Shown here: piece after piece, positions 2,461-53,666 of the stretch | Numbering within the stretch: the first letter of the stretch is position 1 | How the letters are laid out: each line of letters begins with the position of its first letter | Assembly (NCBI RefSeq): GCF_016097555.1 | Contig: NC_054708.1 | Span: 62,396,537 to 62,460,536 of the forward strand | Length of the DNA: 64,000 bases | Reading direction: 5' to 3' | Origin: Gigantopelta aegis | Lineage: Eukaryota | Program-made: the position numbers and the translations under genes | Notes under the pieces: model-generated | Told to the model about the DNA's origin: nothing | What the model saw: only the letters and a program-made list of their open reading frames with translations | Databases searched by the model: none

Positions 2461-3966
2461 ACACAATGGATGAACGTTCTAGTTGTCACTCTGCTGTTAG
2501 TAGCAGGATTTAGCTCAGTCAGTCGATCAACACAATGGACGAACGTTCTAGTTGTCACTCTGCTGTTAGTAGCAGGATTTAGCTCAGTCAGTCGATCAAC
2601 ACAATGGACGAACGTTCTAGTTGTCACTCTGCTGTTAGTAGCAGGATTTAGCTCAGTCGATCAACACAATGGACGAACGTTCTAGTTGTCACTCTGCTGT
2701 TAGTAGCAGGATTTAGCTCAGTCAGTCGATCAACACAATGGACGAACGTTCTAGTTGTCACTCTGCTGTTAGTAGCAGGATTTAGCTCAGTCAGTCGATC
2801 AACACAATGGACGAACGTTCTAGTTGTCACTCTGCTGTTAGTAGCAGGATTTAGCTCAGTCAGTCGATCAACACAATGGACGAACGTTCTAGTTGTCACT
2901 CTGCTGTTAGTAGCAGGATTTAGCTCAGTCAGTCGATCAACACAATGGACGAACGTTCTAGTTGTCACTCTGCTGTTAGTAGCAGGATTTAGCTCAGTCA
3001 GTCGATCAACACAATGGACGAACGTTCTAGTTGTCACTCTGCTGTTAGTAGCAGGATTTAGCTCAGTCAGTCGATCAACACAATGGACGAACGTTCTAGT
3101 TGTCACTCTGCTGTTAGTAGCAGGATTTAGCTCAGTCAGTCGATCAACACAATGGACGAACGTTCTAGTTGTCACTCTGCTGTTAGTAGCAGGATTTAGC
3201 TCAGTCAGTCGATCAACACAATGGACGAACGTTCTAGTTGTCACTCTGCTGTTAGTAGCAGGATTTAGCTCAGTCAGTCGATCAACACAATGGACGAACG
3301 TTCTAGTTGTCACTCTGCTGTTAGTAGCAGGATTTAGCTCAGTCAGTCGATCAACACAATGGACGAACGTTCTAGTTGTCACTCTGCTGTTAGTAGCAGG
3401 ATTTAGCTCAGTCAGTCGATCAACACAATGGACGAACGTTCTAGTTGTCACTCTGCTGTTAGTAGCAGGATTTAGCTCAGTCAGTCGATCAACACAATGG
3501 ACGAACGTTCTAGTTGTCACTCTGCTGTTAGTAGCAGGATTTAGCTCAGTCAGTCGATCAACACAATGGACGAACGTTCTAGTTGTCACTCTGCTGTTAG
3601 TAGCAGGATTTAGCTCAGTCAGTCGATCAACACAATGGACGAACGTTCTAGTTGTCACTCTGCTGTTAGTAGCAGGATTTAGCTCAGTCAGTCGATCAAC
3701 ACAATGGACGAACGTTCTAGTTGTCACTCTGCTGTTAGTAGCAGGATTTAGCTCAGTCAGTCGATCAACACAATGGACGAACGTTCTAGTTGTCACTCTG
3801 CTGTTAGTAGCAGGATTTAGCTCAGTCAGTCGATCAACACAATGGACGAACGTTCTAGTTGTCACTCTGCTGTTAGTAGCAGGATTTAGCTCAGTCAGTC
3901 GATCAACACAATGGATGAACGTTCTAGTTGTCACTCTGCTGTTAGTAGCAGGATTTAGCTCAGTCA
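2461..3966. repeat. 69-bp tandem array, about 22 nearly identical copies (one 65-bp variant)
   Basis: Unit is acacaatggacgaacgttctagttgtcactctgctgttagtagcaggatttagctcagtcagtcgatca. The unit 3' part matches a SINE tRNA-like head (ggacttagctcagtcggtcaagtgg at 53298). The array runs straight into a SINE body at 3962. Confidence 0.95.
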
Positions 3967-5281
3967 GTCGATCAAACTACCTTGGTGGATCCAGTCAACT
4001 GATTGTTTTTTTCTTGTTCCAACCAGTGCACGTCAACGGCCATCACCTATGGTATGTGCTTTACTGTCTTTGGGAAAGTGCATATAAAAGATCCCTTGCT
4101 GCTAATGGAAAAATGTAGCAGGTTTCATCTGATGACCGAGTCAGAATTACCAAAATGTTGGACATTCAATAGGTGATGATTAATTAATCAATGTGCTCTA
4201 GTAGTGTCGTTGAACAAATCAAACTTTTTTCTTTGCTGTTACTATTTATGTGATCCCCTATTTCTTTTCATCACTATACTCAACGCATAAATCAATGAGA
4301 TCCATCAGAACAGACAAATTACAGGAATCAGTTTAAAAACATGACTAGCTGATCCTCGGTAGCGAAAAGATGGGGAAACAATGGTATAGAGAATTTAATA
4401 ACTGCTGCTACCAAAAGGACTACCCTTAGCTCTTATATCAGTCTATTAACCAACATAACAAAACAACATATATATACCTTTCATCTGCATACAAGTCGGT
4501 AAAGTAATAATTTAAGAACCTATAGAAAACCATGTTAAATTATTTATTTACATTTTAAATTTTTTATGGTAAAGTGCGCGGTCTGTCTGGGATCGATCCC
4601 TGTCCGTGGGCCCATTGGGTAATTTCTCATTCCAGCCAGTGCACCACGACTGGTATATCAAAGGCTGTGGTATGTACTACCCTGTCTGTGGGATGATGCA
4701 TATAAAAGAACCCCATGAAGTAGCAACAGTGGGTTTCCTCTCTCAATATCTGTGGTCCGTAATCATATCTGGCACCATATAACCGTAAATAAAATGTGTT
4801 GAGTGCATCATTAAATAAAACATTTCTTTCTTTTTTTACGTACAAAAAAGAGCACGATTAACGTGCATGCACACACGCACAAACGGCAGGCTGAACGTGT
4901 CCGGCTGCACGTAGAACTGGATTCAACTAGGTTAAGTAATAATTAAGCCAACCTCTGGATGGCAAAACATGCGACAGTAGGCCCTTATACTGTTTTGTTT
5001 TGTTTGTTTGTTTGTTGTTATTTTTTGTGGGGTTTTGTGTTGTTGTTTTTTTGTGGGTTTTTTTTTTTGTGGGTTTTTTTTTTGGGGGGGGGGGAGAGGG
5101 GGTTATGCTGTACATTAAACCGAATGACCACTTTGCGAACCAGTCAAAATAATTTGCAAACGTTTAACGAAAAACGACTGGCTAGCCGTATGCCACATTT
5201 GTGACGCTGGAAAACATGTCAGTTTTCAAACCGAGTATTATAGCTTCTAACCCGTCTAAACTCTTTCCCCTGCTACCGGCC

Positions 5282-12556: not shown

Positions 12557-13462
12557 TAATTCTTTGGTGTCATGTTTTGTTTATGAATGAAATATTACTG
12601 TAAATCAGGAAATGTTAGTGAGCATAAAATGTTAGCGAATTTAGTGAGGTCATACAAGATGCTAATATTTGATGACGCTAAATTTAAAGAGACATACAAT
12701 GGATTGTTCCAATAACATCTGTAATGAACTGAATTCGGAACAATGGTTACATGCTATTGATTAAATCAAAAAGATAGCAAACAATAGTTAGTTAGCATGC
12801 AAATTACTGCAATGTTCTACTAAATTCAAAATGTTTGTAAGCTGCATAATGTCAAGATTCGTCAAAAACATTATTTCAGCTGATCCTATAACTTAAGCTT
12901 TTTCTTTTTTTTAGTTTCTGATGTCGCTTATTTGAATTTAGCTAAATTTTAAGATAACTAATATTTTATGATTTACAGTATTTTGATAATTGCAATCTGT
13001 CATTGTGGGTTTTTTTTAAATGCTTCGATGATATTAACTTAAAGATAGTGTTGAAATTTGAAAAGTTAACAACAGAAAAGACTTGAGCATACTGGAATGT
13101 AATACAGAAGCATGATACTTTTAAAATATCTTATTGGAGAAAATAAGATATCACACCAACACTAAGAGCAAAGAGTGACTGCAACCAAAACTCGCATCCA
13201 GTTTCAGGAAGCTAACCATATTCAATCCCACAATTTTATATTTTATTCAAACATTTCGACATGTATAGTGAATTAAATTTGGTCTGCAATTCCAAGTGTT
13301 CCCTTATTTCTTTATCTCAGTATTTATTAATTTTATATAACTTTGCAGTTGAAACATTTTCAAACCGATCTCAATTTTGCTGAAAAACCCAACAAACCCA
13401 CCCTCCAACAAACACAGAAGGAAAAGAATGGATGACACTCAACATAATTCCCACACACTGAC

Positions 13463-13527
13463 CAGGTTTTGTGACTCCAAGTTGGCTTCATGCTCTATTT
13501 CTTTTGCTTCTGCCTTCAGTGTTACAG
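13463..13527 (-). CDS. MVP: MVP exon (A-VTLKAEAKEIEHEANLESQNL)
   Basis: Matches human [26 protein letters not shown]. Acceptor ttttgcag, donor GTCAGT. Confidence 0.8.
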
Positions 13528-13729
13528 CTGCAAAATATAACGCAGTAAAAGTATAGGATTGTAGTGCATATAAAAAGTCAAAGAAAAGTAAGCATAATAC
13601 GAATATGATTGTAAAGCATGTAAAAAAAACTACTTCTCAGCAATAAATATTTGGTGGAAGTGAAACTTTTGTCTCGTTTTGTAAACACAAATAATTATAG
13701 GATATTAAATAAGCTTCCATTTAGTAACA

Positions 13730-13870
13730 TGTTGCATGTTCCTTGTGAAATAATTTTCATTGTCACTCGCTAAAGCTTGTGACAACTGAACATTATTTCA
13801 CTCGTGACATATTTAGCGAGTAACAATGAAAATTATTTCACATAATATGAAATGGTAGCGAGTTTAGTAT
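13730..13870. mobile_element. Hairpin MITE (gtgaaataattttcattgtcactcgctaaag / inverse); related copy at 44560-44690
   Basis: Arms at 13748-13778 and 13803-13838 are inverted. 44568 gtgaaataattttcattgtcacccgctaaag. Confidence 0.55.
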
Positions 13871-14017: not shown

Positions 14018-15620
14018 TTTTAATAATATGTGATTATTAAAGCCCGGTTTATGTTTCCCTGTTCAACCCATGCAGCCTGTTTACCTTCAATCTCACTGTT
14101 ACAAATAATATGTGATTATTAAAGCCTGGTTTGTGTTTCCTTGTTCAGCCCGTACAGCCTGTTTACCTTCAATCTCACTGTTACAAATAATATGTGATTA
14201 TTAATGCCCGGTTTGTGTTTCCTTGTTCAGCCTGTGCAGCCTGTTTACCTTTGATCTCACTGTGACAAATAATATGTGATTATTAAAGCCCGGTTTGTGT
14301 TCAGCCCATGCAACCTGTTTACCTTCGATCTTGCTGTGACAAATAATATGTGATTATTAAAGCCCGGTTTGTGTTTCCTTGTTCAGCCCGTGCAGACTGT
14401 TTACCTTCGATCTCACTGTGACAAATAATATGTGATTATTAAAGCCCGGTTTGTGTTCAGCCCGTTCAGCCTGTTTACCTTCGATCTCACTGTGACAAAT
14501 AATATGTGATTATTAAAGCCCGGTTTGTGTTCAGCCCGTGCAGCCTGTTTACCTTTGATCTCACTGTGACAAATAATATGTGATTATTAAAGCCCGGTTT
14601 GTGTTCAGCCCGTGCAGCCTGTTTACCTTCGATGTCACTGTGACAAATAATATGTGATTATTAAAGACCGGTTTGTGTTCAGCCTGTGCAGCCCGTTTAC
14701 CTTCGATCTCGCTGTGACAAATAATATGTGATTATTAAAGCCCGGTTTGTGTTTCCTTGTTCAGCCCGTGCAGCCTGTTTACCTTCGATCTCAATGTGAC
14801 AAATAATATGTGATTATTAAAGCCCGGTTTGTGTTCTGCCTGTGCAGCCTGTTTACCTTCGATCTCACTGTGACAAATAATATGTGATTATTAAAGCCCG
14901 GTTTGTGTTCAGCCCATGCAGCCTGTTTACCTTTGATCTCACTGTGACAAACAATATGTAATTATTAATGCCCGGTTTGTGTTTCCTTGTTCAGCCCATG
15001 CAGCCTGTTTACCTTTGATCTCACTGTGACAAACAATATGTGATTATTAAAGCCCGGTTTGTGTTCAGCCCGTGCAGCCTGTTTACCTTTGATCTCACTG
15101 TGACAAACAATATGTAATTATTAATGCCCGGTTTGTGTTTCCTTGTTCAGCCCGTGCAGCCTGTTTAACTTCGATCTCACTGTGACAAATAATATGTGAT
15201 TATTAAAGCCCGGTTTGTGTTCAGCCCGTGCAGCCTGTTTACCTTCGATCTCACTGTGACAAATAATATGTGATTATTAAAGTCCGGTTTGTATTTCCTT
15301 GTTCAGCCCGTTTACCTTCGATCTCACTGTGACAAATAATATGTGATTATTAAAGCCCAGTTTGTGTTCAGCCCGTGCAGCCTGTTTACCTTCGATCTCA
15401 CTGTGACAAATAATATGTGATTATTAATGCCCGGTTTAAGTTCAGCCCGTGCAGCCCGTTTACCTTTGATCTCACTGTGACAAATAATATGTGATTATTA
15501 AAGCCCAGTTTGTGTTTCCTTGTTCAGCCCGTGCAGCCTGTTTACCTTCGATCTCACTGTCACAAATAATATGTGATTATTAAAGCTTGGTTTGTGTTCA
15601 GCCTGTTTACCTTCGATCTC
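14018..15620. repeat. 74/81-bp intronic minisatellite, about 21 copies; the unit contains the MVP exon 21 end plus its splice donor
   Basis: Unit (minus strand) is ...atttgtcacagtgagatcgaag|gtaaacaggctgcacgggctgaacacaaaccgggctttaataatcacatatt. The first unit overlaps the authentic exon end TGTCACAGCGAGATCGAAG|gtaaacagg at 15601-15629. Confidence 0.9.
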
Positions 15621-15837
15621 GCTGTGACACTCGATGATAACCCGCTCGGCCTGGGCCTGAGCCTCGGCTTTAGCCTGGCCGCACGACTCGATAGCCGCCG
15701 AGATCGCCTGCAGCTCCAGCAACTTGGCGCGCTCCTTCTCAGACTCCTTCTCATTGAGGAGTTTCTGTCGCTCCAGTTCACCACGCGCTATCTGCTCATT
15801 TCTCTCTGCTTCATGAAATGCGGATGCTTCAATGGAC
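15611..15837 (-). CDS. MVP: MVP exon 21 ([76 protein letters not shown]-)
   Basis: Matches human ...[69 protein letters not shown]. Acceptor tatcacag, donor GAAG|GTAAAC. The last 19 nt plus the donor are copied in the downstream array. Confidence 0.85.
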
Positions 15838-16513
15838 CTGTGATAAAAATGTGGGTTTTTTTATTTTGTTTAATTATTATTATTTTTTAAGAAATTGTGT
15901 TTGGATTTTACAATTAATAGATATCAGTTGTAAAAGTCAAGCATTTCAAGTATGGTGTAACTGTTTAAATAAGGTATATATCAGGCATGGCAGAAGCAAT
16001 TAGACATTGGGAGGTGGGGGGCTGACTGAGATATGGGTGTTCGGAGATATGCTCCCTCGTAAAATTTTGAAAACTAGATGTCCTGAAATGCAATTTCCTG
16101 CATTCTACAATTAAAATTCATATCTGCCAATTACTACCAATAATATTTTTGATTCAGAATTATTGGGGGTTCTAGAGCACCCACCCCACTCCAACGTGTC
16201 TGTATATATGCCTAGGATATTTTGTGATATTCATCTACACTGAGGATATCTAAAATACTTTAATTAATAATAATAATATGACAATGAAAAGACTAATATG
16301 TGACTCATATATTATACAGTCATGTACATGTAGTTGAATTGATCTTCAGATTACTCCATCTTACTACACTTGGTGTGCAGGATTCAGTCAAAAGTTTTAA
16401 ATTCAAGACTTTATTACCCTGACATATTTTAACAATATATAATATGGTGGTAGTCCTCGAGCACCATGATTATAAATAATTTGAAAATACATTTTTAAAA
16501 CGTCAGAAATCAC

Positions 16514-16614
16514 CTAGTAGATATTTCTATTGCCAGCTGTACAGACTTGCTGAGGCTGTCTCTCATCTTGGGGTCCGAGGGTTCAATACTCTGGATGTCT
16601 ATGTTGGTGACCAC
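16514..16614 (-). CDS. MVP: MVP exon ([33 protein letters not shown])
   Basis: Matches human [33 protein letters not shown]. Acceptor aaatttcag, donor GTGATT. Confidence 0.9.
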
Positions 16615-17439
16615 CTGAAATTTCATCCAAAATCTAACGTGTAGATTATAATGTGCTGAGGTGTGACTGAAAACAATTTCTTCTACAATTCTTGAAACAT
16701 TATTAGCACAAGGATTTTATCCATCAATTTTTATTTTTAATATTTTGGCCAATAATGGCCATCACAATTAAACCTTCACCTTCAGAAATGAAAATAACCC
16801 TGAACAAAACAATGCAGAAAACTTTAATTTGTGTCTAAACAAAATTCAAATAGAAACTTGTAAGATAAAAGTTTGTTTTGTTTATAACGACACCACTAGA
16901 ACATATTGATTTATTATCATCGGCTATTGGATGTCAAACATTTGGTAATTTTGACATACACATGTAGTCTTAGAGGGGAAACCCGCTACATTTTTCCATT
17001 AGTAGCATGTGATCTTTTATACGCACCATCCCAGACAGGATAGCACATACCACTGGCTGACCCCATAAGATGACAAGTAACATATCTTCTATATAGTGGT
17101 ACAAACAACTACATGTACATGTAATAGTGTAGTTTATAATGATGCTAAGAGGGTTAAGAGTTAGCCTCTTTAAAACAACTGATTGCTTAATACACATCTC
17201 TCTGTACTCTATTAGATGATTCAGGCTAATAGTAAACTGATCTCTTGAGGTACATGTAGGTACAAAGATGTAACTCTCCAGACTTTAATGCCAACCGAAA
17301 AGTGTTTCTGACCATGTTCTGTGACAAAAAGCTAGCAATAACCCATTCAACACTACTTTACTACACCCAGCACATTTTCTATGTGACAAAAATGTTGTAA
17401 TTTTTCCCAGCATAAAGGCTTAAAGTGACAGACCCTAGT

Positions 17440-20200
17440 TTTTAAACACTACAACATATTTTCACTATTAACACGTTGACTGCTGCCCACGAGTATATTC
17501 GTATGCTGAGCGCACCAGATTTTGCCACTACGAGTTTACTCGTAGTAAAACCAGTGCTGTGTCGTATTAAATTAAAGTTGTCAGCAATGGCAATAACACA
17601 ATTAGTAACCTTTCTGGCAATGACTAATAACAAATTGATGTAATAATCAATGAAATTATTTATTAATTAATGTTTGAATGATTTTGATTGTGAACACAAG
17701 TCACAGCATTTCATAATGGAAATATCTTGACACATATCTCTTTGACTAAATCATTTATAGTTATAATGTTAAAAATCAACATAAATACAGGAACAGATTT
17801 ATTCCTAATGTTTCAGAGCAATTTGGACTATGTTTGAAACATTCATATAAATGATGAATCAATGATCGTCTTCATTGATGAAAGTCAAAACTATAACACA
17901 GCGATCAAAAGAAAAAACCGTTTTGCCATGTATAATGTGTCTATGCTTGAACTATTAATAAATGTGGGTTTATTGTCAGTGTCATATTGAATTGGTATGT
18001 CCATTATTCTGACATGTGATAAACTTTGAAACATTTTCCCACACAAACAGCTGGCTTCCTGGGGCAGACTTCACAGATGTAACAGGATTCCCGTCTTGTA
18101 CCGGCCTTTGTGCACACTCGGCAAGGTTTGGTAGGTCGCTCTTTCTTCTCTGTGGGAGGCAGTGGTGCAAGGTAATGGAATGTCTCATTTACTGGAGCCT
18201 GGGAATGTGCTGGGCCGTGGTCATGTAATTTGTCATAGACATCACCAAGCAGGTGAATTGTAATTCTAGGATATGCAGGACAATCTTCTTATACCACCGG
18301 ATTGTCTTGCGCAGCGCCGGGTAGTAAGACAGCATTTGATCTGACCTGTCTACTCCAGCCATGCCATTGTTGTAATCTCGGACTGTGTTCGGCTTTCTTG
18401 ACAGCTTGTCATTCCGATTTCTAACATCAACCATCTCAATTCGATGCATGTTGCTGATTGTAAGAACTTTGCATTTGTCTTTCCATTTGCAAACTACCAC
18501 TGATTCAGACCGCTTCCAAACATGTTCCCCCTTCTTCAACTTCTGTTTGATTAAATCTTTTGGATTTTCTTTTCTGTCAAATCGCAGAGTTCCACAAAGA
18601 TAGGTTGATCGGTTTGTCATCTTCTTCACCAGACTCACAGAATTGTAATAATTATCTGTGTACACCACATGGCCTTTGTCTAGGTAGCCGTCCAAGAGGT
18701 CTAGAACAGTTGCAGCAACTTGACCATAGCCATCATCATCAGTTAGGTGGACACCACTGTATACCCAAATCTTCAGAACAGTGCCTCAAGGCTTGCACAG
18801 TTCATAGAGTTTGATTCCATATTTATGACGTTTATTCTTGATATACTGGCGAAACAGCAATCTGCCACGCCAAAGTACCATGGACTCATCAATAGAGAGA
18901 TCTTTCCCTGGATAGTAAATAGCCGGCATGACATCGTTGAAATGATCCAGAACAGTGCGTATCTTGAACAAGCGATCATCATTATGTTGATCATTGTCTG
19001 CAAAATGCCAGAAACGCAAAAGTAGTTGGAAATGGTTGCGGCTCATGACACCACCAAAAAATGGTGAACTGTATAGAACATCAGTACTCCAGTAGTGTTG
19101 TATAGTAGGCAAGGTTTTTGGACCCATGTGAAGCAACAATGCAATGAACTGTTTCATTTCCTTAGCATCCGTGTCCTTCCAAGATTTCAAATGTGATTCT
19201 CTTCTTAAAGGACACTGCTTGTTTATTTCCACTGCAGCATATCGATTTGTTTCTGTAACCATTTTATCTATCAACTGTGGTGTCAGAAATAAATCAAAAT
19301 ATGCACCGGGCGATGTATCCTGTAAGTCCATTCTAAGACCAGAGTTTTCAGTGAAAGCAAAGTCAGGTGGATCTTGGGCAACATCTAACCATGTATGCAC
19401 TGGGACAGCACAATTTCCACGCCCATCTGCTCCATTCCGTCCTGTGCCTGGTGCTGGGCTGGAAACTGCTTGTCTATTAAACAAAATTGCAGCTCTACCT
19501 TGACCACGATATCGTACACTTCGACCTCTAGCTGGTGTAACCGCACCACGCCTACCACGGCCATCACCGCTTCCAGGAGTTCCACGACCACGAGGTCCTC
19601 GAGTGCGAACACCACGAAATCTAGACCTACCACGTGTTGCCGGTTGTACCCCATCGTCACTTGAAACATACGAGTCTGATGAAATCATTGTATCACCTTC
19701 TTCACTGCTCCAGTTAGTATGAAGATCTAGTGAATCAGTATCACTAATATCCATATCAGGATCATCACTTTCCTCATCTGTTTCCATCATCAAAGCGGCA
19801 ACTTGCTCAGCAGAAAGGTTTCTAGTCGCCATTTTGGAAAGTAGCAAGTACTGAGTATCAAAATTACGTAACAAAAACCAATGACGCAATAAAATCTGGG
19901 AGGCACGTGACTCGTAGCTGGCAAATACAATACAGTGATTGCATAATGTTGCCAAACTACGACTTGTACTTGGCATACCAAATAAAAATGTTATATTTCA
20001 TTGCCAGCTACGAGTAATTTCATGTCACATGCTCTTCCATAAACGTACTAAGTAATATGCATAAAATAACTTAGAAATAACATTTATGGGTAAATAAAGG
20101 AAATGCATATCTTTATATGACTTGGCAAACTGGACCAGCCGCCATTTTGTTTACGGCACTCAACGTGTTAAAGACGTTTCTGATAATTTAACTTAGAAGT
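17440..20200 (-). mobile_element. piggyBac-like DNA transposon relic inside an MVP intron (boundaries approximate)
   Basis: ccctagttttTTAAacac at 17444. Subterminal inverted repeat ttaacacgttgac (17468) and its inverse gtcaacgtgttaa (20163). Repeated ctacgagt subterminal motifs at both ends. Confidence 0.5.
17982..19976 (-). pseudogene. piggyBac-type transposase (DDE_Tnp_1_7-like) broken into three ORF pieces (396+168+68 aa) by two frame disruptions
   Basis: Peptides SPGAYFDLFLTPQLIDKMVTETNRYA, YYPGKDLSIDESMVLWRGRLLFRQYIKNKRHKYGIKLYELC, HVVYTDNYYNSVSLVKKM and CGTLRFDRKENP are piggyBac hallmarks. C-terminal Cys-rich piece CLPQRRKSDLPNLAECAQRPV. Confidence 0.8.
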
Positions 20201-20975: not shown

Positions 20976-22262
20976 ATGTCGTTGTTAAAGTGGCTGAACA
21001 CAGTTCAGAAACCAAAATTATCGGGTTTACCAAATCCTAAAGAATGTTTGTCTGCAGAACAAGTGATGTCTTTTGAAACTGCCAACAACGCCACCGAACA
21101 GATAGAGACTAGTAAAGTGAACCCAAGAAAACGTAAACACAGTGATTACGGTCTACATGTATATACTGAAGAAACTTGTGCTAAGTTTTCCCGTTATGCA
21201 ATCGATCATGGAGCGGCTCGCAAATTTACTGTTGATCTGGGTAAAAAACTTAATGAAAGCACTGTTAGAAGTTTAAAGGCGTCATACTTAAAAACAACAA
21301 GGATCACCAATGATGGCAGTTCATTAAAGTCATTGCCGAAAGGTCAACGTGGACAGCCCCTTATGCTTTGCAAGTACGATGACTTGGTGAAAGAATGGGT
21401 CAAAACCATGAGGATTCATGGGGGTGTCATCACCACTGCCACCGTGACCGGTGCCGCGATCGGAATTGTGAAGAAACTTGAACAATCAAAGTTGCGCGAG
21501 TTTGGTGGGCCACTACAAATCACAAACACTTGGTCGAAATCATTTTTATCCAGGATGGGCTATGTCAAACGGAAAGGGACGAAAGGAGTAAAAAAAAAGT
21601 GCCCGGTGATTTTGAAACGTTAAAATCACAATTTATCGATCGTGTGAAAAAGGCTAAGAGTGAAAATAACATCCCTGATGAACTCATCATCAACTGGGAC
21701 CAGACGGGTGTCAACCTTGTACCTGGGGGCGATTGGACATTTGAAGAAAAAGGTGCCAAACAAGTGACCATCAGTGGCAAAGATGACAAGCTCCAGATTA
21801 GTCCTGTTGGCTGTCTCGATGGCTGAAGAACTTCTCCCACCACAGGTGACATATGGTGGTAAAACTGACAAGTGTCACCCGCATGTGGAATTCCCGGAAG
21901 AATGGAATGTTACACACACAGAGTCACACTGGATTAACGAAAATTCAATGTTGGAATTCTCTGAGGAAATTGTAATTCCTTACATGGATAAAATGAGAAC
22001 AAATCTCAAGATGGCAGATGATCAACGATGTATTGCTATCTTTGACGTGTACAAGGCACACCAGTGTAAAACATTGCTAGACAAACTGAAAAAAGCTCAC
22101 ATTCAGGTGGTCTTCGTTCCTGCTGTGTGCACCGATCAGCTACAGCCGCTGGACTTAACGTTCAATAAAAACTATAAGATGGAACTAAAAAGGTGTTTCA
22201 TTCACACGCGAAATAAAGCATTCTACATTTTCACAGGCTGTAACAAGGGTCTATGCCTTTAA
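20976..22262 (+). pseudogene. pogo/Tigger-like (DDE_1) transposase relic, split across three frames
   Basis: psq/CENP-B-like HTH region (AIDHGAARKFTVDLGKKLNESTV). Tc5-type HTH (ITNTWSKSFLSRMGYVKRKGTKG). DDE_1 motifs NWDQTG ... FDVYKAH ... TDQLQPLDLTFNK. Frameshifts near 21620 and 21780. Confidence 0.6.
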
Positions 22263-23410: not shown

Positions 23411-26010
23411 CTGAAAATTAACAAAATCCACATGCAATTACATAGATACCACTTTAGTGTTAGTTTAATGTACAAAATGTTTTATGTTAGTTCACTCTGT
23501 AAAGGTGATAAAAACAACTATTATTAATGAAGAGTAATTGTGACGGGGGTTTTTCGCATTCAAAGTGTCAATTTTTTTTTTTTTTTATAAAAGCTCAAAT
23601 TTGTATTAAAATGTTTGTTCTCGAAAATTATTAAAATTTAAGCCCTGGGATTAAAGATGAGCTGTGCTGGTAATCTTGTAGGCTACAAAAATAAAATCAA
23701 TTTTAATACTGACACATGTAAAATAAATCCTTTTGTCTTAACTCCCCTTGTCACCTTCTTCAGTTACGGTGAGCCCATTCGGTACGTAGATCTCCTATAC
23801 AAGTCATGAGTATTCTGCTATGAGTGCTATGTAAACTGGACCCTGATCGAAACTGTCAAATGTCTATAATGGTTTTATTCTGCTGTGTATGATTTTCTCA
23901 AACAACGATTTTCCCCAAATAGAATACAGTGAAACCAGTCTAAACCAGATCATTCCGGGGACCTAATATTTATCTGATTTAGACAGGATCCAGTGTTTAG
24001 ATGGTCACATTTTAGTATTTGGAGAATTCGGGACCATGAAACTTGGCCAATTTTGACAGGATTCCAGTTTGTTCTAGGTCCAGTTTCGACAGGTTTCACT
24101 GTATTTCAAAACGACAATGATTATTTTATAAATTTATTATAACCAGTGCCAATGTCCATCATAAATCTAAATGTACTCACCTCAAAACGACAATGATTAT
24201 TTTATAAATTTATTATAACCAGTGCCAATGTCCATCATAAATCTAAATGTACTCACCTCAAAATGATTGTTGAAACATATTCTCACTCTCAGTCTAGCAT
24301 GGTCAGATGTTTCAACCTAGCAAAATGAAAAAGAGACAATGAAGTATTTTATGTATGCCAGGGCTTCTAGATTATGGTAGCCCCACTTCCATGGCTAGTG
24401 ATATTCAATGCTGGGCTAGTAAATAACTACTATTGCCATGCCCGACGGCTAGTGAAAAGAAAGAAAAAAAAGAGTCTAATGCTGCAGTTAGGTCTATTTT
24501 GTAAATATATATATACCCACACCACCACCACCACCACCAAGTGTTAGTGTTTTTAAGCTCTATCTTCCTGTTTAGGTGTCATATCTGATTACTATTAATT
24601 AGTAAAATTATATTAACTTAAAGTAAAGTAGGGCTAGTGAATTTTTAATCGTGGCTAGTACATTTTTAAAATCACTGATCCCATGACTAGTGGATTTTTA
24701 TAAAATTCTATAAGCCCTGTGTATGCACTAATCACCTGTTAAATATATTCTTATGACATGTTTGTCCAATCTGTTTTAAAATATGTTCAACATACATGAA
24801 TACAATTATTTGTTGAACATGTATTTAAATATATTTATAATGTTCTTGTTCATTAGGATTTTTTGTGTGAGCACGCACTTTAAAAACCAAAACAAAATGT
24901 TGTTAAAACAAATTGCTCTTTTAGTACTGGATGGGTGTAGCAATGAATACTCTTTGTAATTTGTATATGTGTGAAAATGTTGATAATAAGTAGAAATTCA
25001 ACATGCATCAAAATAAAATGTGGTACATCTTGTCAGTGGCATTCTAACATACAGTGGTTATAATTTACAGAGATATGTGTGTGTGTTTGGGGGGGGGGGG
25101 GGGGGGCGCTCCAAAGTGCCCCTATTCTTTAAAATTGAATGAATTAATATAAATTTGTTTTTAAGAGAGGATGGTTGTAATATGTTAGTTGGCTGGGTGT
25201 TTTCAGGATGGAATGGCATATAAATAATGTTAGTATAGTTTAGAATAATAAAAATGTCCTCACTACATTTGTATTTTTCAAATCTATATACCAGCTGCAT
25301 AAAACATGCATGCATTCATTCCTGTTATTAAAAGCATGCTTGGTAAAAAGTATCAAAATCATACTTTATACAAACTTGGTAAAAAGTATTAAAATAATAC
25401 TGTATACAAGTGTGGTAAAAAATATTAAGATCATACTTTATTCACATTTGCTCAAACAATATTAACAACACATATACATATACATGCTTACTAAGGCTCA
25501 TTTTCTATTTGTTTACATGATTATACTAAATGGTGTTTCAAGCTATTTCAGCTATTTAAACTGTCTATCTAGATAAAATCTGATAGCCAAATTACTAGCG
25601 GTTAACAAAGGAATGAATGTTTATCCACACCCCAGCATGAAAAATACACTGGTTATTGGGTGCATGGTTAAAGAGACAGAAATCCATGTAAAGATTACAT
25701 CTCTCCACTGATATGAAGCCAGTACTGGAATACGAACCCAACACATACCAAATGTGGTTTTTTTTTAACTGACCCCAGATCAATAATAATGTCAGGGTTG
25801 GGGAGCCTTGTATCACCACCGTACAATACAGTTTTAATTACACCAAATATATCCAAGTAAATGAAATATTAGATAAAACAAAATCTTAATACTGATGGCA
25901 ACCGTAAGCCGGTAGCATGGTGGTTAAGCCAGGGCATAAACCTGCACAATATCTCATTTTGTACCACGGGACGATATTTAAACATCTTAGGTAACCGGAA
26001 TTCAATTTAC

Positions 26011-29183: not shown

Positions 29184-30169
29184 CTACAAACACAACAAAA
29201 ATCACAGTTACTTCTAACACGAACCAGTCAGTGTAATATCTCATCGTATGTAAACAATCAGCTTTTAACTGGGTTTTTTATTTTTATTTGTTTTATTATA
29301 TCATTATGTTTTGAAGATTACAAAGACTTCAAGTATTACATCACTCTATTTTTCTGAATCTGTATACAATAGTGATTATAAATATCATTGGTTCCAAAAA
29401 TTAACATGAAATTCCCACAGGACCTATTTTTGCTCCATATGCCACTACACTATACATTATTGTACAATGAACCCTCATGATAATTATGGTGTCATAGGAT
29501 GTAGCAAAGTGTTTCACAGCTGGTACATCAAATGTTATGTGGTATGCACTGTCCTGTCTCTAGGTTAGTGCATAAAAAACTCCTCCTTGCAGACATTCAG
29601 TAGTCTATATACTGACAGCAAGTTAAGTTCAGTCCAACGCTTGTCATTAACATTCGCTAAACTCGTTTTTATGCTACACAGTAAAATGAATGACCACTTC
29701 GGGAACCAGTCCAAATAGTTCGCAAACGTTACCGAAAAATGGCTGACTGAACTTGGGGCAGGTTTCTTTTCTCATTTGCAATTCGACATAAAATAGCCAT
29801 TAATTAAACAATCTCAATCAATTTACATTTTCCATGACTTGCTATGACCCAATTAAAAATTCCATGACTTTCAAAGCCTGGAAAATGACATTTTCTAATT
29901 CCATGACTTTTAAGGATTTCCAGGACCCGTATCGGCTATTGGATGTAAAACATTAGGTAATTCTGACATATAGTCTCAGAGAAGCAACATGCTATATTTC
30001 CCATTAGTAGCAAGAGATCTTTTATATGAGAACCCACTGGCACAGTCAGAGGACCACCCATGGCACCTACGCCCCAATCAAACTTTTTTTATTATTAAAC
30101 TGTATTAAATTTAATGAAATCATGCATACATATAGTGTGGGTTGGTCCACCAATATAAAATCCTGGCTA

Positions 30170-30822
30170 TGCAATCATCAAGCTTTAACTGTAGAAATGT
30201 CGAGATAGATGGACATGTGGATGATTAGTGCCCAATGGGCCCACTGAAGGGGATCAACTTATGAAACAATTCATCCAGCTTTAACTGTATGCACCATCCC
30301 ACAGGCAGGATCACACATACCACGGCCTTTAATATACAAGTTGTGGTGTACTGGCTGAACGATAAGTTGCCCAATGGGCCCACTGAAGGGGATCGATCTG
30401 CCTGTTACTGAAAGAAACAATTCATCACAGCTTTAACTGTAGAAAATGTCGAGATAGATGGACATGTGGATGATGAGTTGCCCAATGGGCCCACTGAAGG
30501 GGATCGATCTGCCTGTTACTGAAAGAAACAATTCATCACAGCTTTAACTGTAGAAAATGTCGAGATAGATGGACATGTGGATGATGAGTTGCCCAATGGG
30601 CCCACTGAAGGGGATCGATCTGCCTGTTACTGAAAGAAACAATTCATCACAGCTTTAACTGTAGAAAATGTCGAGATAGATGGACATGTGAACGATAAGT
30701 TGCCCAATGGGCCCACTGAAGGGGATCGATCTGCCTGTTACTGAAAGAAACAATTCATCACAGCTTTAACTGTAGAAAATGTCGAGATAGATGGACATGT
30801 GGATGATGAGTTGTAAACACAC
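30170..30822. repeat. 114-bp tandem array (about 4 full copies plus degenerate ones) derived from the SINE core and tail
   Basis: Unit is gttgcccaatgggcccactgaaggggatcgatctgcctgttactgaaagaaacaattcatcacagctttaactgtagaaaatgtcgagatagatggacatgtggatgatga. Ends 1 nt before the MVP exon donor at 30823. Confidence 0.9.
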
Positions 30823-30917
30823 CGCAGTAACTCCTCTTCAATGGGACGAAGTGGCTTCTCCCACAGTTCTTCATCTGCCGTCAACATGTAGGCCCGTGGG
30901 CCTAACACAGCACGCAC
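30823..30917 (-). CDS. MVP: MVP exon (VRAVLGPRAYMLTADEELWEKPLRPIEEELL-R)
   Basis: Matches human [30 protein letters not shown]. Acceptor tatttttag, donor GTGTGT. The 114-bp tandem array ends about 1 nt from this donor. Confidence 0.85.
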
Positions 30918-31930
30918 CTAAAAATAACACAGTACTAATATTATATTTCCATTACAACAAAAAGTTAAATTTTGTGAGGTTTAACACCACCACTGCAGCA
31001 CACTGATAAACTGCCCATCTGGATGTCAAGACACGTGGTCGTCAGAGGAAACACACTACAATTTTCCATTAACTGCAAAGGATCTTTTACAAACAGGACA
31101 ATACATACCATTGCCTTTGATAGACATGGGGCACTAGTTGAGTCATATACAACAGGTCTGATGCTAAACTTTGTAATTTCATTTTATCTTCAGTGTCCTG
31201 TCCAGGACAGTGGGTTAACAGTTAGTTACTATGGTTAGTAAGACGGATGTCCATGTAATGGTTATTAAAACTCACTTTTGATGTGAGTCAGGACAGTGAG
31301 TTAATGCTTAGTCACTATGATTAGTAATGGCTATTAAAACTCACTTTTGGTGCGAGTTGGCACCGAGTTGCAGATCAATTACCACTGTGACTGTGATTGC
31401 ACAAAAAGAGGCTGGTGATATCTGTCAATCATTCATTCATTTATCCATTCATTCATTCATTTAGAGTTGTTTTTGTGTTATATTCAATGAAGATTCAAGC
31501 AGATTGTCCTGGGTACACATTTCAGCTGTGCTGTCTGTCCAGGACAGTGGTTAGTGGTTAGTGGGTGAGCAGTCGGTATAGTGGTCTTATTCACAGAGTC
31601 TTTAAACTCGCTTTGAGTGGGAGCCGGTACCGGGATGTGAACCCAGTACCTACCAGTCTTAAATCAGATGGATTAATCACTGCACCACGAGGCTGGTGAT
31701 ATCTGTCATTGGAAGATCACCATATGTATGTCTATTGTCATACTAGGCAGGCCACAAATTTGTTACAACTTTCCAACTTGAATCTCACTAAATAAACCAG
31801 CTATGTATAAAACATGAAATCTTATGGATTTTATTCTTACATTTTGTTAATATGTAACTAAACAATGTCACCTCTGATAAAGCCACATATATATGTAACA
31901 AGGACCACATGCACATACTAAATGACTTAC

Positions 31931-32770: not shown

Positions 32771-33389
32771 CAAAAGAAACACCTTACTGGTTGAAAATCA
32801 TCTACAGCTATAATGTGATATCATAAAACCGTCATATGATGTCACAATGGCACACGCCATACCCTATGACGGCTTTATGATATCATAGCGCTAAGATAGC
32901 TTCGAAAATCTGGGCCCTGGGCTTCAACTAGCCACATGGTTGAATTCACTGAACATTCTTTAAGTCATTTAAAAAAAAAAAAAAAATCAATTTGAGATGT
33001 AACATGTATAAAATATTTGGGTAGAATACTTGGCTAAAATTTAATCATCAAGTTTTGTTGTCTAGAGTTACAAACGTTTTCAAGAACATCTGAACTTACC
33101 GTAAAAATGTCTTCAAACCCAACACAAAAACACAAAAACGGCTTGGATAGGTGGGAGCGAAAAGAAGAAACTGTCCAAATCATTGAAGCAGAGTGATAAG
33201 GATGTAACTATCACGTGACCAGAACAGGATGCCATGACTCAGTGGAAGATTTTAGCCATCTGATTGGCTGTCCACAGAACTAGGGGTAAAGTATCATAGG
33301 TCAGAGGTCAGCTTATGTATGAAAACAAAAACTGTTATGCAGTCATGCAAAAATCATAGGGTGCTCTTGCAAAGATGGAAAGGAAAAAA

Positions 33390-33690
33390 AAAGGCTTATT
33401 TAAAGACGCACTCAACACATTTTATTTTACGGTTATATGGTTTCGGACATATGGTTAAGGACCACACAGATATTGAGAAGAAACCCGCTGTCACCACTTC
33501 ATGGACTAATCTTTTTGATTAGCAGCAAGAGATCTTTTATATGCACCATCCCATAGACAGGATAGCACATACCACAGCCTTTGTTGTACCAGTTGTGGTG
33601 CACTGGCTGAAGCGAGAAATAGCGCAATGGGCCCACTGACGGGGATCAATCCCAAACAGACCGCGCATCAAGCAAGCACTTTACCACTGG
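33390..33690 (-). mobile_element. tRNA-derived SINE (type-1 head GGGGCAGGACGTAGCCCAGTGGTAAAG + core + type-2 tail), minus orientation
   Basis: Head with A-box TAGCCCAGTGG and B-box-like GGGATTGATCCCC. The minisatellite starts 7 nt beyond the head. Confidence 0.8.
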
Positions 33691-33696
33691 GCTACG

Positions 33697-36600
33697 TCCT
33701 GCCCCTGCAAAGATGGGAGTCGTAATGCATACTGGTAATAATAATGGCAAAGATGGGAGTCGTAATGCATACTGGTAATAATAATGGCAAAGATGTCGTA
33801 ATGCATACTGGTAATAATAATGGCAAAGATGGGAGTCATAATGCATACTGGTAATAATAATGGCAAAGATGTCATAATGCATACTGGTAATAATAATGGC
33901 AAAGATGTCGTAATGCATACTGGTAATAATAATGGCAAAGATGGGAGTCAAAGCATATGGTAATAATAATGGCAAAGTAATGCATACTGGTAATAATAAT
34001 GGCAAAGATGGGAGTCGTAATGCATACTGGTAATAATAATGGCAAAGATGGGAGTCGTAATGCATACTGGTAATAACAATGGCAAAGATGGGAGTCGTAA
34101 TGCATACTGGTAATAACAATGGCAAAGATGGGAGTCGTAATGCATACTGGTAATAATAATGGCAAAGATGGGAGTCGTAATGCATACTGGTAATAATAAT
34201 GGCAAAGATGGGAGTCATAATGCATACTGGTAATAATAATGGCAAAGATGTCATAAAAGTAATAATAATGGCAAAGATGTCATAATGCATACTGGTAATA
34301 ATAATGGCAAAGATGGGAGTCATAATGCATACTGGTAATAATAATGGCAAAGATGTCATAATGCATACTGGTAATAATAATGGCAAAGATGGGAGTCGTA
34401 ATGCATACATAATGGCAAAGATGGGAGTCGTAATGCATACTGGTAATAATAATGGCAAAGATGGGAGTCGTAATGCATACTGGTAATAATAATGGCAAAG
34501 ATGGGAGTCGTAATGCATACTGGTAATAATAATGGCAAAGATGGGAGTCGTAATGCATACTGGTAATAATAATGGCAAAGATGGGAGTCGTAATGCATAC
34601 TGGTAATAATAATGGCAAAGATGGGAGTCGTAATGCATACTGGTAATAATAATGGCAAAGATGGGAGTCGTAATGCATACTGGTAATAATAATGGCAAAG
34701 ATGGGAGTCATAATGCATACTGGTAATAATAATGGCAAAGATGTCATAATGCATACTGGTAATAATAATGGCAAAGATGTCATAATGCATACTGGTAATA
34801 ATAATGGCAAAGATGGGAGTCGTAATGCATACTGGTAATAACAATGGCAAAGATGGGAGTCGTAATGCATACTGGTAATAATAATGGCAAAGATGGGAGT
34901 CATAATGCATACTGGTAATAATAATGGCAAAGATGGGAGTCGTAATGCATACTGGTAATAACAATGGCAAAGATGGGAGTCGTAATGCATACTGGTAATA
35001 ATAATGGCAAAGATGGGAGTCGTAATGCATACTGGTAATAATAATGGCAAAGATGGGAGTCATAATGCATACTGGTAATAATAATGGCAAAGATGTCATA
35101 ATGCATACTGGTAATAATAATGGCAAAGATGTCATAATGCATACTGGTAATAATAATGGCAAAGATGGGAGTCGTAATGCATACTGGTAATAATAATGGC
35201 AAAGATGGGAGTCATAATGCATACTGGTAATAATAATGGCAAAGATGTCATAATGCATACTGGTAATAATAATGGCAAAGATGTCATAATGCATACTGGT
35301 AATAATAATGGCAAAGATGGGAGTCATAATGCATACTGGTAATAATAATGGCAAAGATGTCATAATGCATACTGGTAATAATAATGGCAAAGATGGGAGT
35401 CGTAATGCATACTGGTAATAATAATGGCAAAGATGGGAGTCATAATGCATACTGGTAATAATAATGGCAAAGATGGGAGTCGTAATGCATACTGGTAATA
35501 ATAATGGCAAAGATGGGAGTCGTAATGCATACTGGTAATAATAATGGCAAAGATGGGAGTCGTAATGCATACTGGTAATAATAATGGCAAAGATGGGAGT
35601 CATAATGCATACTGGTAATAATAATGGCAAAGATGTCATAATGCATACTGGTAATAATAATGGCAAAGATGTCATAATGCATACTGGTAATAATAATGGC
35701 AAAGATGGGAGTCATAATGCATACTGGTAATAATAATGGCAAAGATGTCATAATGCATACTGGTAATAATAATGGCAAAGATGGGAGTCGTAATGCATAC
35801 TGGTAATAATAATGGCAAAGATGGGAGTCGTAATGCATACTGGTAATAATAATGGCAAAGATGGGAGTCGTAATGCATACTGGTAATAATAATGGCAAAG
35901 ATGGGAGTCGTAATGCATACTGGTAATAATAATGGCAAAGATGGGAGTCGTAATGCATACTGGTAATAATAATGGCAAAGATGGGAGTCGTAATGCATAC
36001 TGGTAATAATAATGGCAAAGATGGGAGTCGTAATGCATACTGGTAATAATAATGGCAAAGATGGGAGTCGTAATGCATACTGGTAATAATAATGGCAAAG
36101 ATGGGAGTCGTAATGCATACTGGTAATAATAATGGCAAAGATGGGAGTCATAATGCATACTGGTAATAATAATGGCAAAGATGTCATAATGCATACTGGT
36201 AATAATAATGGCAAAGATGTCATAATGCATACTGGTAATAATAATGGCAAAGATGGGAGTCGTAATGCATACTGGTAATAACAATGGCAAAGATGGGAGT
36301 CGTAATGCATACTGGTAATAATAATGGCAAAGATGGGAGTCATAATGCATACTGGTAATAATAATGGCAAAGATGGGAGTCGTAATGCATACTGGTAATA
36401 ACAATGGCAAAGATGGGAGTCGTAATGCATACTGGTAATAATAATGGCAAAGATGGGAGTCGTAATGCATACTGGTAATAATAATGGCAAAGATGGGAGT
36501 CATAATGCATACTGGTAATAATAATGGCAAAGATGTCATAATGCATACTGGTAATAATAATGGCAAAGATGTCATAATGCATACTGGTAATAATAATGGC

Positions 36601-37143
36601 AAAGATGGGAGTCGTAATGCATACTGGTAATAATAATGGCAAAGATGGGAGTCGTAATGCATACTGGTAATAATAATGGCAAAGATGGAAGTCATAATGC
36701 ATACTGGTAATAATAATGGCAAAGATGTCATAATGCATACTGGTAATAATAATGGCAAAGATGTCATAATGCATACTGGTAATAATAATGGCAAAGATGG
36801 TAGTCGTAATGCATACTGGTAATAACAATGGCAAAGATGGGAGTCGTAATGCATACTGGTAATAATAATGGCAAAGATGGGAGTCGTAATGCATACTGGT
36901 AATAATAATGGCAAAGATGGGAGTCGTAATGCATACTGGTAATAATAATGGCAAAGATGGGAGTCATAATGCATACTGGTAATAATAATGGCAAAGATGT
37001 CATAATGCATACTGGTAATAATAATGGCAAAGATGTCATAATGCATACTGGTAATAATAATGGCAAAGATGGGAGTCGTAATGCATACTGGTAATAACAA
37101 TGGCAAAGATGGGAGTCGTAATGCATACTGGTAATAATAATGG
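33697..37143. repeat. 3.4-kb AT-rich minisatellite of 40-bp and 36-bp units with higher-order alternation
   Basis: Units are ggcaaagatgggagtcgtaatgcatactggtaataataat (40) and ggcaaagatgtcataatgcatactggtaataataat (36). Roughly 88 units. Begins directly at the tRNA-like head end of a SINE at 33690. Confidence 0.95.
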
Positions 37144-37292
37144 CACAGTTGGCAATGTGCTAGCCAAACAAAGCAGTTTATCTGTGGTATTTCTTTAATG
37201 TTTACATCTGAAAAGTTCTTCAATACACTTGAGATTTATACGTGGTACCATACTTGTGATATCTGTGACATTAACAACATGCCTACATGTAC

Positions 37293-37394
37293 CTTTGAAC
37301 ATCTTATCAACACATTCACTGGTGCACTGAAGGACCAACGACTCATCAGCAGACAGGATGTGTGCCTTTTGAATTCCGTGTTCTAGCCTTTCAC
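37293..37394 (-). CDS. MVP: MVP exon (GERLEHGIQKAHILSADESLVLQCTSECVDKMFK)
   Basis: Matches human [30 protein letters not shown]. Acceptor gatttcag, donor GTACAT. Confidence 0.8.
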
Positions 37395-38261
37395 CTGAAA
37401 TCATTACACAAACTGTTATCAACATATTTTAACAATATTAGTAATACATCATAAATACATGTAGTGTTCACAGTTGTCAATAGAAATTTGTCATGGCATG
37501 GTAGACTAAAACACTTTTGGGGAATTTTCACCATTTTGAGGACACTTTTTTTTTCCATTGAAGACAAAAATATTATTGAAATAAAAATATAATTTAATGT
37601 AATTGATGTGCTTGCTTTAATAAATGAATGGCAAAATATATAACAGGCATATTTTACTAACTAATAATACATTTTCTAAGTGTTTTATAAAGGCAATTTT
37701 TAAATTAATTTCTGAAAATAGTTTTTTTTTAAATCTCAGGGCAGCATGGTGCTGATTAAGGCAAGATGGTGCTAGAGCAGTGAGGTAAGGTGCCACACCA
37801 TGCTAAAACAAGCTAGAGAAAACACTATACATGCCTGTGCCAAACCATCTGCAACATTTTGGTATCATAAATGAATAAGAACGGACACAGTGCAATTGCA
37901 ATTAAATTTATATCAAGTCAATTATAAATGCTTAATTATTTATATTTTCTTTTCTTTTTATTTTGGTGAGGGGAAGTATACTTAAACTTTCATACATTTT
38001 AATACACAGTAGATATAAAACAAATTGCTTGCAAAAAAAAAAACCCCACTGAAAACTAAATTAATTGAAAACCAAACAAATATGATATTATGAGATGGCC
38101 AATTTAGTTAGACCAAAAAACAAATATAGTCTCTCTGGTCAGACCAAAGCTCCAAAATTGATGTGGTGATGCAGATGTTTTTTTTTTTTTTAAATTCCTT
38201 TTTCTGAGTTTGTTTTTTGCAATCATGAACTGGAAACAAAAGGAGGGTATATTTTGTTCTT

Positions 38262-40360: not shown

Positions 40361-40456
40361 ATGTCCCACACCACCCACTATAGAATGCAGCCTAAGAACA
40401 TGTATAGTGTGTGAGAAAGGATTGTAAAACAAGTACTTGTGTCTGTATTAGCTTAC

Positions 40457-53600: not shown

Positions 53601-53666
53601 CTTTGATTCCAGACTGATCACAAATCACTGGGCTATGTCCCATCTAGCAAAACAAAGTACAATTAC

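Follow-up and report, generated by a model that had tools for sequence, protein, structure and literature searches.

Mammals, squamates and molluscs are all known to carry tandem repeats derived from transposons, including short interspersed elements (SINEs). For the birth of minisatellites, Haber & Louis 1998 and Taylor & Breden 2000 are said to invoke slippage and mispairing of strands, or unequal exchange, at short direct repeats that are not contiguous. The tandem arrays described here belong to the known, transposon-associated kind and establish no new pathway. They were found in 64,000 nucleotides of Gigantopelta aegis DNA (NCBI RefSeq assembly GCF_016097555.1, contig NC_054708.1, positions 62,396,537 to 62,460,536 of the forward strand; hereafter the window), and we regard them as probably locus-specific minisatellites that formed in place, in and beside the SINE-rich gene for the major vault protein (MVP).

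Among human minisatellites, thousands are transposon-derived and many of these come from Alu (review PMC9659126). As that review summarises earlier work (Armour 1989, Bois 1998, Ahmed & Liang 2012, via PMC9659126), human arrays lie within or next to Alu copies, and the mouse carries a B1-derived variable number tandem repeat family. In squamates, SINE-derived satellites (sSats; Vassetzky et al. 2023) show a longer terminal unit that extends to the SINE terminus and have originated independently from several SINE families (PMC10702118). Two mollusc systems are also described. PcH-sat of the limpet Patella caerulea, in which 118 of the 179 bp of the unit are similar to Nin-SINE, is a major pericentromeric satellite amounting to ~10% of the genome (PMC11121367). 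The tandem-like HCD-SINE structures of bivalves are multimers of complete elements (at least 150 bp) in SINE-rich introns, attributed to recombination between target-site duplications, and their authors point out that arrays built from fragments would have escaped the filters (PMC11481361). A three-step model of duplication, amplification and homogenisation is standard for such repeats (PMC9659126, PMC10702118), and microhomology-mediated tandem duplication is among the subjects of a further report (PMC8639346).

Four tandem arrays and the composition of their units

Arrays were called by Tandem Repeats Finder (TRF), which confirmed all four of the arrays named in a preliminary description of this DNA:

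2461-3974 (TRF 2461-3975), plus strand: array 1, 22 units of 69 bp, 99% matches (TRF)
30361-30813, minus strand: array 2, 4.1 units of 111 bp, 97% (TRF)
51098-51833, plus strand: array 3, 6.1 units of 121 bp, 98% (TRF)
33707-37152, plus strand: array 4, ~88-89 units (61 of 40 bp and 23 of 36 bp), 91% (TRF and unit census)

The window holds ~30 SINE fragments, which make up 9.4% of its length (BLAST with in-window copies). These elements are mosaics with three head types, H1 (GGGGCAGGACGTAGCCCAGTGG...), H2 (GGGAYTTAGCTCAGTC...) and H3 (ACCGGCCTYGRTGG...), and three tail types, (CAAA)n, TTTC-rich and (TGAA)n; a core, CCAGTGCACC...GCATATAAAAGATCCCTTGCTGC, is common to most of them and links H1, H2 and H3 elements. 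Their target-site duplications are 9-14 nt long, and it is on the basis of dispersal, target-site duplications and tails that they are termed SINEs. A-box-like TAGCTCAGT(C/G)GG and B-box-like GGATCGAATCC motifs are visible in the heads at a tRNA-like spacing, and only these motifs point to a putative tRNA origin. ARAGORN predicted 0 tRNAs in the window, the Rfam tRNA model gave no match to the window SINE heads at E<=10, and the same model reached only 17.4 bits (E=3.2, nothing significant) on the H2 head of a metagenome contig, L004. This contig and another, L003, carry related SINEs and were recovered by a scan of metagenome data with a 23-mer of the SINE core; they were used for the H2 head consensus only.

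Each array unit was aligned locally, as a dimer, to ten SINE copies on both strands, and its best score was compared with those of shuffled units. The 69-, 111- and 121-bp units aligned better than their shuffles, whereas the 40-bp unit stayed at chance level. The preliminary description had all four arrays growing out of tRNA-derived SINE sequence; SINE homology was found in part of each of the first three units and is absent from the 40/36-bp array. According to the alignments and shuffled controls, SINE sequence accounts for 24-27 nt of the 69-bp unit, 44 nt of the 111-bp unit, 88 nt of the 121-bp unit and none of the 40-bp unit. No second copy of the non-SINE parts was found within the window, and for this reason their assignment to another repeat was rejected. 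The units of arrays 1-3 are chimeras, with 27-65% unique upstream flank, rather than plain SINE sequence. What the arrays show directly is the make-up of their units, the target-site duplications, the edge repeats and the continuity with SINE bodies.

The 69-, 111- and 121-bp arrays must be younger than a SINE insertion, because no unit lacks a piece of the SINE and the remainder of the element follows on from the terminal unit. The SINE bodies are ~84% identical to their sister copies and the arrays are 97-99% homogeneous; old bodies beside homogeneous arrays therefore indicate that expansion is much younger than insertion.

Array 1 (69 bp)

The following features adjoin array 1 or serve as its reference:

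3934-3947, plus strand: 5' target-site duplication CTCTGCTGTTAGTA, which abuts the SINE start; the 14-mer is present in all 22 units
3948-4224, plus strand: SINE continuing from the last array unit, with H2 head, shared core and tail A ending CAAAC (global alignment)
4231-4244, plus strand: 3' target-site duplication CTTTGCTGTTACTA of the SINE at 3948-4224
53293-53602, plus strand: reference full-length H2-head SINE, the sole other H2 head in the window

In array 1 the unit joins 42-45 nt of unique 5' flank, in which the SINE's 5' target-site duplication lies, to the initial 24-27 nt of the H2-head SINE. It had been described as homologous to a SINE head, which applies to GCAGGATTTAGCTCAGTCAGTCGA only: this part of the 69-mer scored 28 against the H2 copy of the window at 53296 (0/200 shuffles) and 33 against an H2-type head in L004 (21/24 identity, 0/1000 shuffles), whereas the other 45 nt did not exceed chance (112/200 shuffles equal). 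The two target-site duplications, CTCTGCTGTTAGTA and CTTTGCTGTTACTA, match at 12 of 14 positions, which was reached by 6 of 2000 shuffles. Because each 69-bp unit includes the 5' copy, this portion of the repeat is original flank, and the array must have arisen after the insertion. That the array runs into a SINE body, as first described, was shown by global alignment; this SINE is 84% identical over the body to the copy at 53293-53602. Its head lacks ~30 nt between the A and B boxes in relation to three full H2 heads, and the same deletion is found in every unit of the array. The junction of this deletion (window 3960-3975) is only 5-6 nt from the unit boundary.

The copies are near-identical, as had been stated, with 19 of 22 units identical. 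The first and last units carry a T where the 20 inner units carry a C, and unit 3 lacks AGTC (a 4-nt deletion, giving a 65-bp unit), which is a derived deletion. An old SINE body beside a nearly uniform array supports the recent expansion or homogenisation proposed in the preliminary description. Microhomology between the array edges is at most 1 nt. We also considered the AGTC of the 69-mer head as a 4-nt duplication, which was rejected as an L004 head also has AGTCAGT, and the whole 69-mer, which is about as long as a tRNA, as a tRNA-like pseudogene, which was rejected as ARAGORN and Rfam found nothing and 45 nt are flank with the target-site duplication. A peptide translated from the array had no matches among 5.8 billion proteins, in a database that probably lacks this species, and the exact array junction had 0 matches in JGI metagenome contigs, a collection that probably lacks it as well.

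Near-identity of the units, with 19 of 22 identical, could also be produced by mis-assembly or consensus polishing, and copy number in arrays of this sort is often mis-estimated. The flanks are clean and unique, however, the edge variants are ordered (T in the first and last units), an internal 4-nt deletion variant is retained and the transition into the SINE is precise, with a target-site duplication. Although the number of copies may be in error, the array is coherent in its structure, and we consider an assembly artefact very improbable.

Array 2 (111 bp)

Array 2 had been given as a 114-bp array at 30170-30822 made of SINE core and tail. The array exists, although with a unit of 111 bp and the narrower TRF span listed above, and its SINE part is neither core nor tail: it comprises only the B-box region up to the start of the body, that is, the 3' part of the head.

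30288-30398, minus strand: SINE-1 positions 62-173, a fragment into which the last unit of array 2 runs without a break (BLAST, 85% over 112 nt)

Read on the minus strand, which is the gene sense, the unit is formed by 67 nt of non-SINE sequence and positions 62-105 (44 nt) of a 5'-truncated H1 SINE (SINE-1). Against H1 SINEs the 111-mer scored 46, with a null maximum of 30, while the other 67 nt were at null level (224/300). One unit extends into the SINE body as far as position 173, where the element is interrupted; past the array there is a diverged extra unit at ~30172-30287, followed by the remaining SINE core at 29931-30028. At the edges of the array, the exon-side repeat GGATGATGAGTTG (30801-30813) and the SINE-derived repeat GAACGATAAGTTG (30357-30369) are identical at 10 of 13 positions, and both variants occur in inner units. 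The array starts ~9 nt downstream of a probable splice donor (CTGCG followed by GTGTGT on the minus strand; window 30813-30823) of the MVP exon at ~30823-30920.

Array 3 (121 bp)

Two SINEs, one at each end, belong to the structure of array 3:

51746-52011, plus strand: full SINE-3b (H3 head, without shared core, TGAA-type tail), continuing from the last array unit; score 163 against the copy at 39872-40106
50796-51104, minus strand: SINE-1 (H1 head, tail A), head-to-head with the array

The unit contains 33 nt of flank (TTGAAATG...CTACTT) and the first 88 nt of the SINE-3b (H3b) head. The 121-mer scored 63, with a null maximum of 29, and its 33-nt non-SINE part was at null level (210/300). 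This region had been described as six 120-bp copies of a type-3 head followed by the body of that SINE; 88 nt of H3b head are indeed repeated and the body follows, but each unit, of 121 bp, also carries the 33 nt of flank. The SINE-1 at 50796-51104 is bounded by its own target-site duplication, TTGAAATGA, at 50787-50795 and 51108-51116 (33 of 2000 shuffles reach this match).

Both edges of the array carry the decamer CC(G/A)ACCCAGA. The left copy, CCGACCCAGA at 51098-51107, consists of the first 7 nt of the SINE-1 head and 3 extra nt, and the decamer recurs in the H3b SINE at a distance of exactly one unit-length to the right. The G and A variants match the two founder copies and both are present within the array. 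Array 3 thus has the form r-A-r-A-...-r, as would be expected if two short direct repeats had aligned unequally. Only a weak inverted repeat (20 nt, 80%) links the two heads.

Array 4 (40/36 bp) and arrays without SINE sequence

No SINE homology was found in the 40-mer of array 4 (175/200 shuffles equal). The array had been reported to start 7 nt from a SINE head; it does adjoin one, at a distance of 1 nt:

33379-33705, minus strand: SINE-1 (H1 head, tail B) adjoining array 4

This element is flanked by a perfect 11-nt target-site duplication, TGCAAAGATGG, at 33368-33378 and 33706-33716 (1 of 2000 shuffles), whose right copy is composed of 1 nt of unique DNA and the first 10 nt of the first array unit. 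The direct repeat at the array edges is ~3 nt. We regard array 4 as an ordinary minisatellite with one edge in common with a SINE insertion: the SINE may have landed in the terminal 10 nt of an array that was already there, or the DNA upstream of the SINE may have been expanded afterwards. The DNA beyond the left TGCAAAGATGG copy was considered as a degenerate array unit and rejected, since 426 of 500 shuffles aligned equally well.

Array 4 is the point at which the reverse order has to be weighed, namely that arrays came first and SINEs were later inserted at or into them, repeats being tolerant targets. The composition of its target-site duplication makes array 4 fully compatible with this order, and the SINE-1 bordering array 3 on its left, which has a separate target-site duplication, agrees with it as well. 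Nevertheless, even at array 4 this order requires that the insertion struck within the last 10 nt at one end of a 3.4-kb array, and the DNA on the far side of the SINE does not resemble a unit; for arrays 1-3 the order is impossible, as all units contain SINE sequence, which joins the SINE body at the terminal unit alone. Taken for the arrays together, we find an arrays-first history possible but doubtful.

Tandem repetition in the window also occurs away from SINEs, in one array that was absent from the preliminary description and in a short duplication:

14022-15629 (TRF to 15603), minus strand: control array of ~20 units of 74/82 bp (TRF)
24106-24263: perfect tandem duplication, 76 bp x2.1, flanked by the hexamer TCAAAA (6-nt direct repeat)

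The 74/82-bp unit comprises the last 19 nt of an MVP exon, a GTAAAC splice donor and the start of the intron. Within the array AAGGTAAAC occurs 20 times, the authentic donor at ~15610 being followed by ~19 more copies; the duplicated donors fall within 14079-15605. No SINE was found in or near this unit (58/200 shuffles for the 74-mer) or near the 76-bp duplication, which may be described as a two-copy, proto-minisatellite stage. The occurrence of both without a SINE indicates, therefore, that tandem duplication here is not SINE-specific.

Arrays and the MVP gene

Translated minus-strand blocks at ~53600-53800, ~37290-37400, ~30823-30920 and ~15611-15840 match MVP. The best database matches reach only 55-77% identity, one of them being named MVP; with a best identity of 77%, the species itself is absent from the protein collection searched. 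The exons recognised are as follows, all on the minus strand:

~53600-53800: MVP exon
37290-37400: MVP exon
30823-30920: MVP exon
16517-16627: MVP exon
15611-15840: MVP exon
13461-13535: MVP exon

Most of the MVP gene is thus held by window ~13461-53800. Its introns contain four of the five arrays (the 111-, 121-, 40/36- and 74/82-bp arrays); arrays 2, 3 and 4 are intronic because they lie between identified exons. Array 1 (2461-3974) lies below the lowest-coordinate exon identified. Splicing of MVP could be affected, given that array 2 begins just past a donor and the 74/82-bp array multiplies a donor ~20 times, with possible decoy sites.

Association of the arrays with SINE 5' ends

The association between arrays and SINEs was compared with a uniform null, using ~30 fragments in ~57 kb (arrays collapsed) and five units. 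The resulting p values are post hoc, the window having been picked for the feature, and this null ignores a sequence preference shared by SINE insertion and slippage. Overlap of at least 3 of 5 units with any SINE sequence has p ~0.02, at least 3 of 5 units spanning a SINE 5' boundary p ~7e-4, and 4 of 5 units spanning or abutting a SINE 5' end p ~4e-5. Overall, the placing of all four arrays at SINE 5' ends has a post hoc p ~1e-4.

This 5'-end bias is an unexplained residue and not evidence for a mechanism. It is rather improbable that SINE 5' ends, meaning the heads that bear an RNA polymerase III (Pol III) promoter together with the upstream junction, are preferred birth sites of minisatellites in this genome. 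If they were, SINE insertion would predispose adjacent unique DNA to tandem repetition, and the cause would lie either in stalled forks or breaks at the heads, or in repair of the 5' junction mediated by a long interspersed element (LINE), during which the first duplication was made. The bias would matter only if it were genome-wide, in which case it would tie SINE insertion to local repeat instability.

A more active role of the heads can be formulated in two ways: a promoter bound by Pol III and TFIIIC stalls replication forks, or template jumping at the LINE-mediated 5' junction duplicates the flank and the SINE 5' end, which are later expanded. Upstream target duplications at the 5' junctions of non-long-terminal-repeat retrotransposons and fork pausing at tRNA genes are known in other systems. 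Four arrays touch SINE 5' ends and none touches a 3' end, while array 1 lacks edge microhomology and has its unit boundary 5-6 nt from the ~30-nt head deletion; all of this would be consistent with seeding by the heads. On the other hand, expansion is far younger than the SINEs (84% versus 99% identity). The head at array 1 has lost most of the B-box region and the SINE at array 2 is 5'-truncated, without an A box, so binding of Pol III factors is doubtful. In addition, the units fold no better than their shuffles (z -0.9 to +0.7) and the inverted repeat between the array 3 heads is weak, which also leaves structure-driven instability, a separate candidate, unsupported. With a sample of four loci chosen post hoc, we hold active seeding to be quite unlikely.

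Origin of the arrays

Formation in place as locus-specific minisatellites, the reading that we prefer, would proceed as follows for arrays 1-3. A tandem duplication of 69-121 bp may have spanned the junction between the 5' end of an old SINE and the unique DNA upstream, and unequal sister-chromatid exchange, or slippage during replication, may later have expanded and homogenised it. Short direct repeats one unit-length apart, the perfect 10-mer at array 3 and the 10/13 match at array 2, appear to have seeded the duplication; one copy of the array 3 10-mer comes from the head of a second, inverted SINE. The SINE would be a passive substrate that contributes some of the unit sequence and, at times, a copy of the short repeat. 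Both the mechanism of duplication and expansion and the order of events are what we infer from these structures.

Four observations weigh against this account. The edges of array 1 show practically no microhomology, so that another route, for example end joining or template switching, is needed for its first duplication. The history of array 2 is more complex than a single duplication, as a diverged unit interrupts the SINE at position 173. The decamers of array 3 differ by G/A, a CpG transition that could be an independent mutation, which makes this a weak point. Finally, arrays 1-4 are all at SINE 5' ends and 0 at 3' ends, and a passive role of the SINE may be incomplete.

The preliminary description had instead seen a recurrent, locus-independent route from SINE to satellite. 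We consider a SINE-specific route of this sort, squamate-like and likely to act at other SINE insertions, to be unlikely here. Three different head types feed three arrays, the longer terminal unit fits the squamate sSat description (PMC10702118) and the 5'-end association exceeds the uniform null. However, 27-65% of the units is non-SINE flank that differs at each locus, one array contains no SINE sequence, and non-SINE arrays arise in the same gene. Furthermore, the 69-bp junction and peptide were found at no second locus in databases that probably lack this species, and three of the four arrays are short and intronic, unlike satellites, the 69-bp array being short and lying below the lowest-coordinate exon identified.

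If minisatellite formation in place is right, these arrays are early-stage minisatellites with legible founder segments, edge repeats and target-site duplications of the host element, and they illustrate how a tandem repeat starts. They would also show a dense SINE load supplying raw material and short repeats for tandem arrays.

Other elements of the window

The window is AT-rich eukaryotic DNA with abundant transposon remnants. Besides the SINEs already described, the following were recognised:

529-1587: Tc1/mariner-type transposase open reading frame (ORF), apparently intact, 352 aa, DDE_3 and HTH (Pfam)
18189-19976, minus strand: piggyBac-type transposase (DDE_Tnp_1_7) in two ORFs (Pfam)
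21774-22262: DDE_1 ORF (Pfam)
39828-40367: nested insertion, with an H3b SINE (39872-40106, plus strand) within the tail of an H1/tail-A SINE (minus strand) and a 12-nt target-site duplication, ATTAATC(A/C)TGGA
61244-62305: second Tc1/mariner copy, broken and split over two ORFs (Pfam)

A further H3b SINE, at 31441-31706 on the minus strand, is flanked by a 19-nt direct repeat, GACAGATATCACCAGCCTC, which is made of ~11 nt of target-site duplication and the first 8 nt of the SINE itself. This repeat looks like microhomology-assisted joining of the 5' junction or the remnant of a junction-spanning duplication. In L004 (contig VAPF01050215.1), two H2-head SINEs at 1498-1808 and 1868-2056 lie in the same orientation ~60 bp apart, as a tandem-like pair.

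Near-perfect palindromic hairpins are found at 13743-13843, 32816-32885 and 49251-49335. Their matches to microRNA (miRNA) families are weak, well under gathering scores, and fall on both strands for two of the three; the hairpins are probably inverted repeats resembling miniature inverted-repeat transposable elements, and not miRNA genes. Long G runs at 5080-5096 and 52790-52815 are followed by GGAGGG-type motifs and adjoin T-rich or GT-rich low-complexity tracts.

Comparison with known systems

The contigs with the nearest MVP homologues (L001 and L002) share exons at 70-81% identity and have no SINEs or arrays in common with the window; they are of no use as orthologues.

The arrays resemble the squamate sSats in that their units contain part of a SINE, a longer terminal unit continues into the element and different SINE families are involved independently. 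Similarity to a SINE of the same genome, matched by no shuffle (0/200 to 0/1000), was found in the 69-, 111- and 121-bp units and not in the 40/36-bp units. The terminal unit continues through to the SINE terminus in arrays 1 and 3, and only to position 173 in array 2. The units do not derive from the SINE portion itself, since 45 of 69, 67 of 111 and 33 of 121 nt are non-SINE. Squamate sSat units are internal SINE portions, present at many loci in up to ~1000 units with a preference for subtelomeres (PMC10702118), whereas the units here are chimeric, with 27-65% unique flank, each is known from one locus in the one window examined, copies number 4-22 and three arrays are intronic.

PcH-sat shares with these arrays the condition of a mollusc tandem repeat whose unit is only partly SINE-derived. 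Unlike PcH-sat, the arrays here are small and confined to a single locus, and their SINE families have no assignment to Nin or another named superfamily. The bivalve HCD-SINE structures are likewise tandem SINE structures in SINE-rich mollusc introns, although only the 5' 24-88 nt plus flank are repeated here.

In mammals, SINE-associated minisatellites similarly represent locus-specific expansion from, or at the edge of, dispersed SINE copies. The host and the SINE families differ, and the consistent 5'-junction position seen here has no counterpart in the literature compared. Arrays 2 and 3 and the 76-bp duplication also resemble the birth of minisatellites between direct repeats, with the form r-A-r-A-...-r and an edge partial unit that is a 6-13-nt repeat; array 1, with its edge homology of <=1 nt, departs from this pattern, and the mechanism here is deduced from structure only.

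Strictly defined satellites are long heterochromatic arrays in pericentromeric or subtelomeric regions, whereas the present arrays measure 0.45-3.4 kb and arrays 2-4 lie in MVP introns. Minisatellites are locus-specific arrays of 0.5 to several kb with units of ~10-100+ bp, and the arrays agree with this definition according to TRF and to the single-copy state of the non-SINE parts in the window. They fit the description of a minisatellite at a SINE junction better than that of a SINE-derived satellite.

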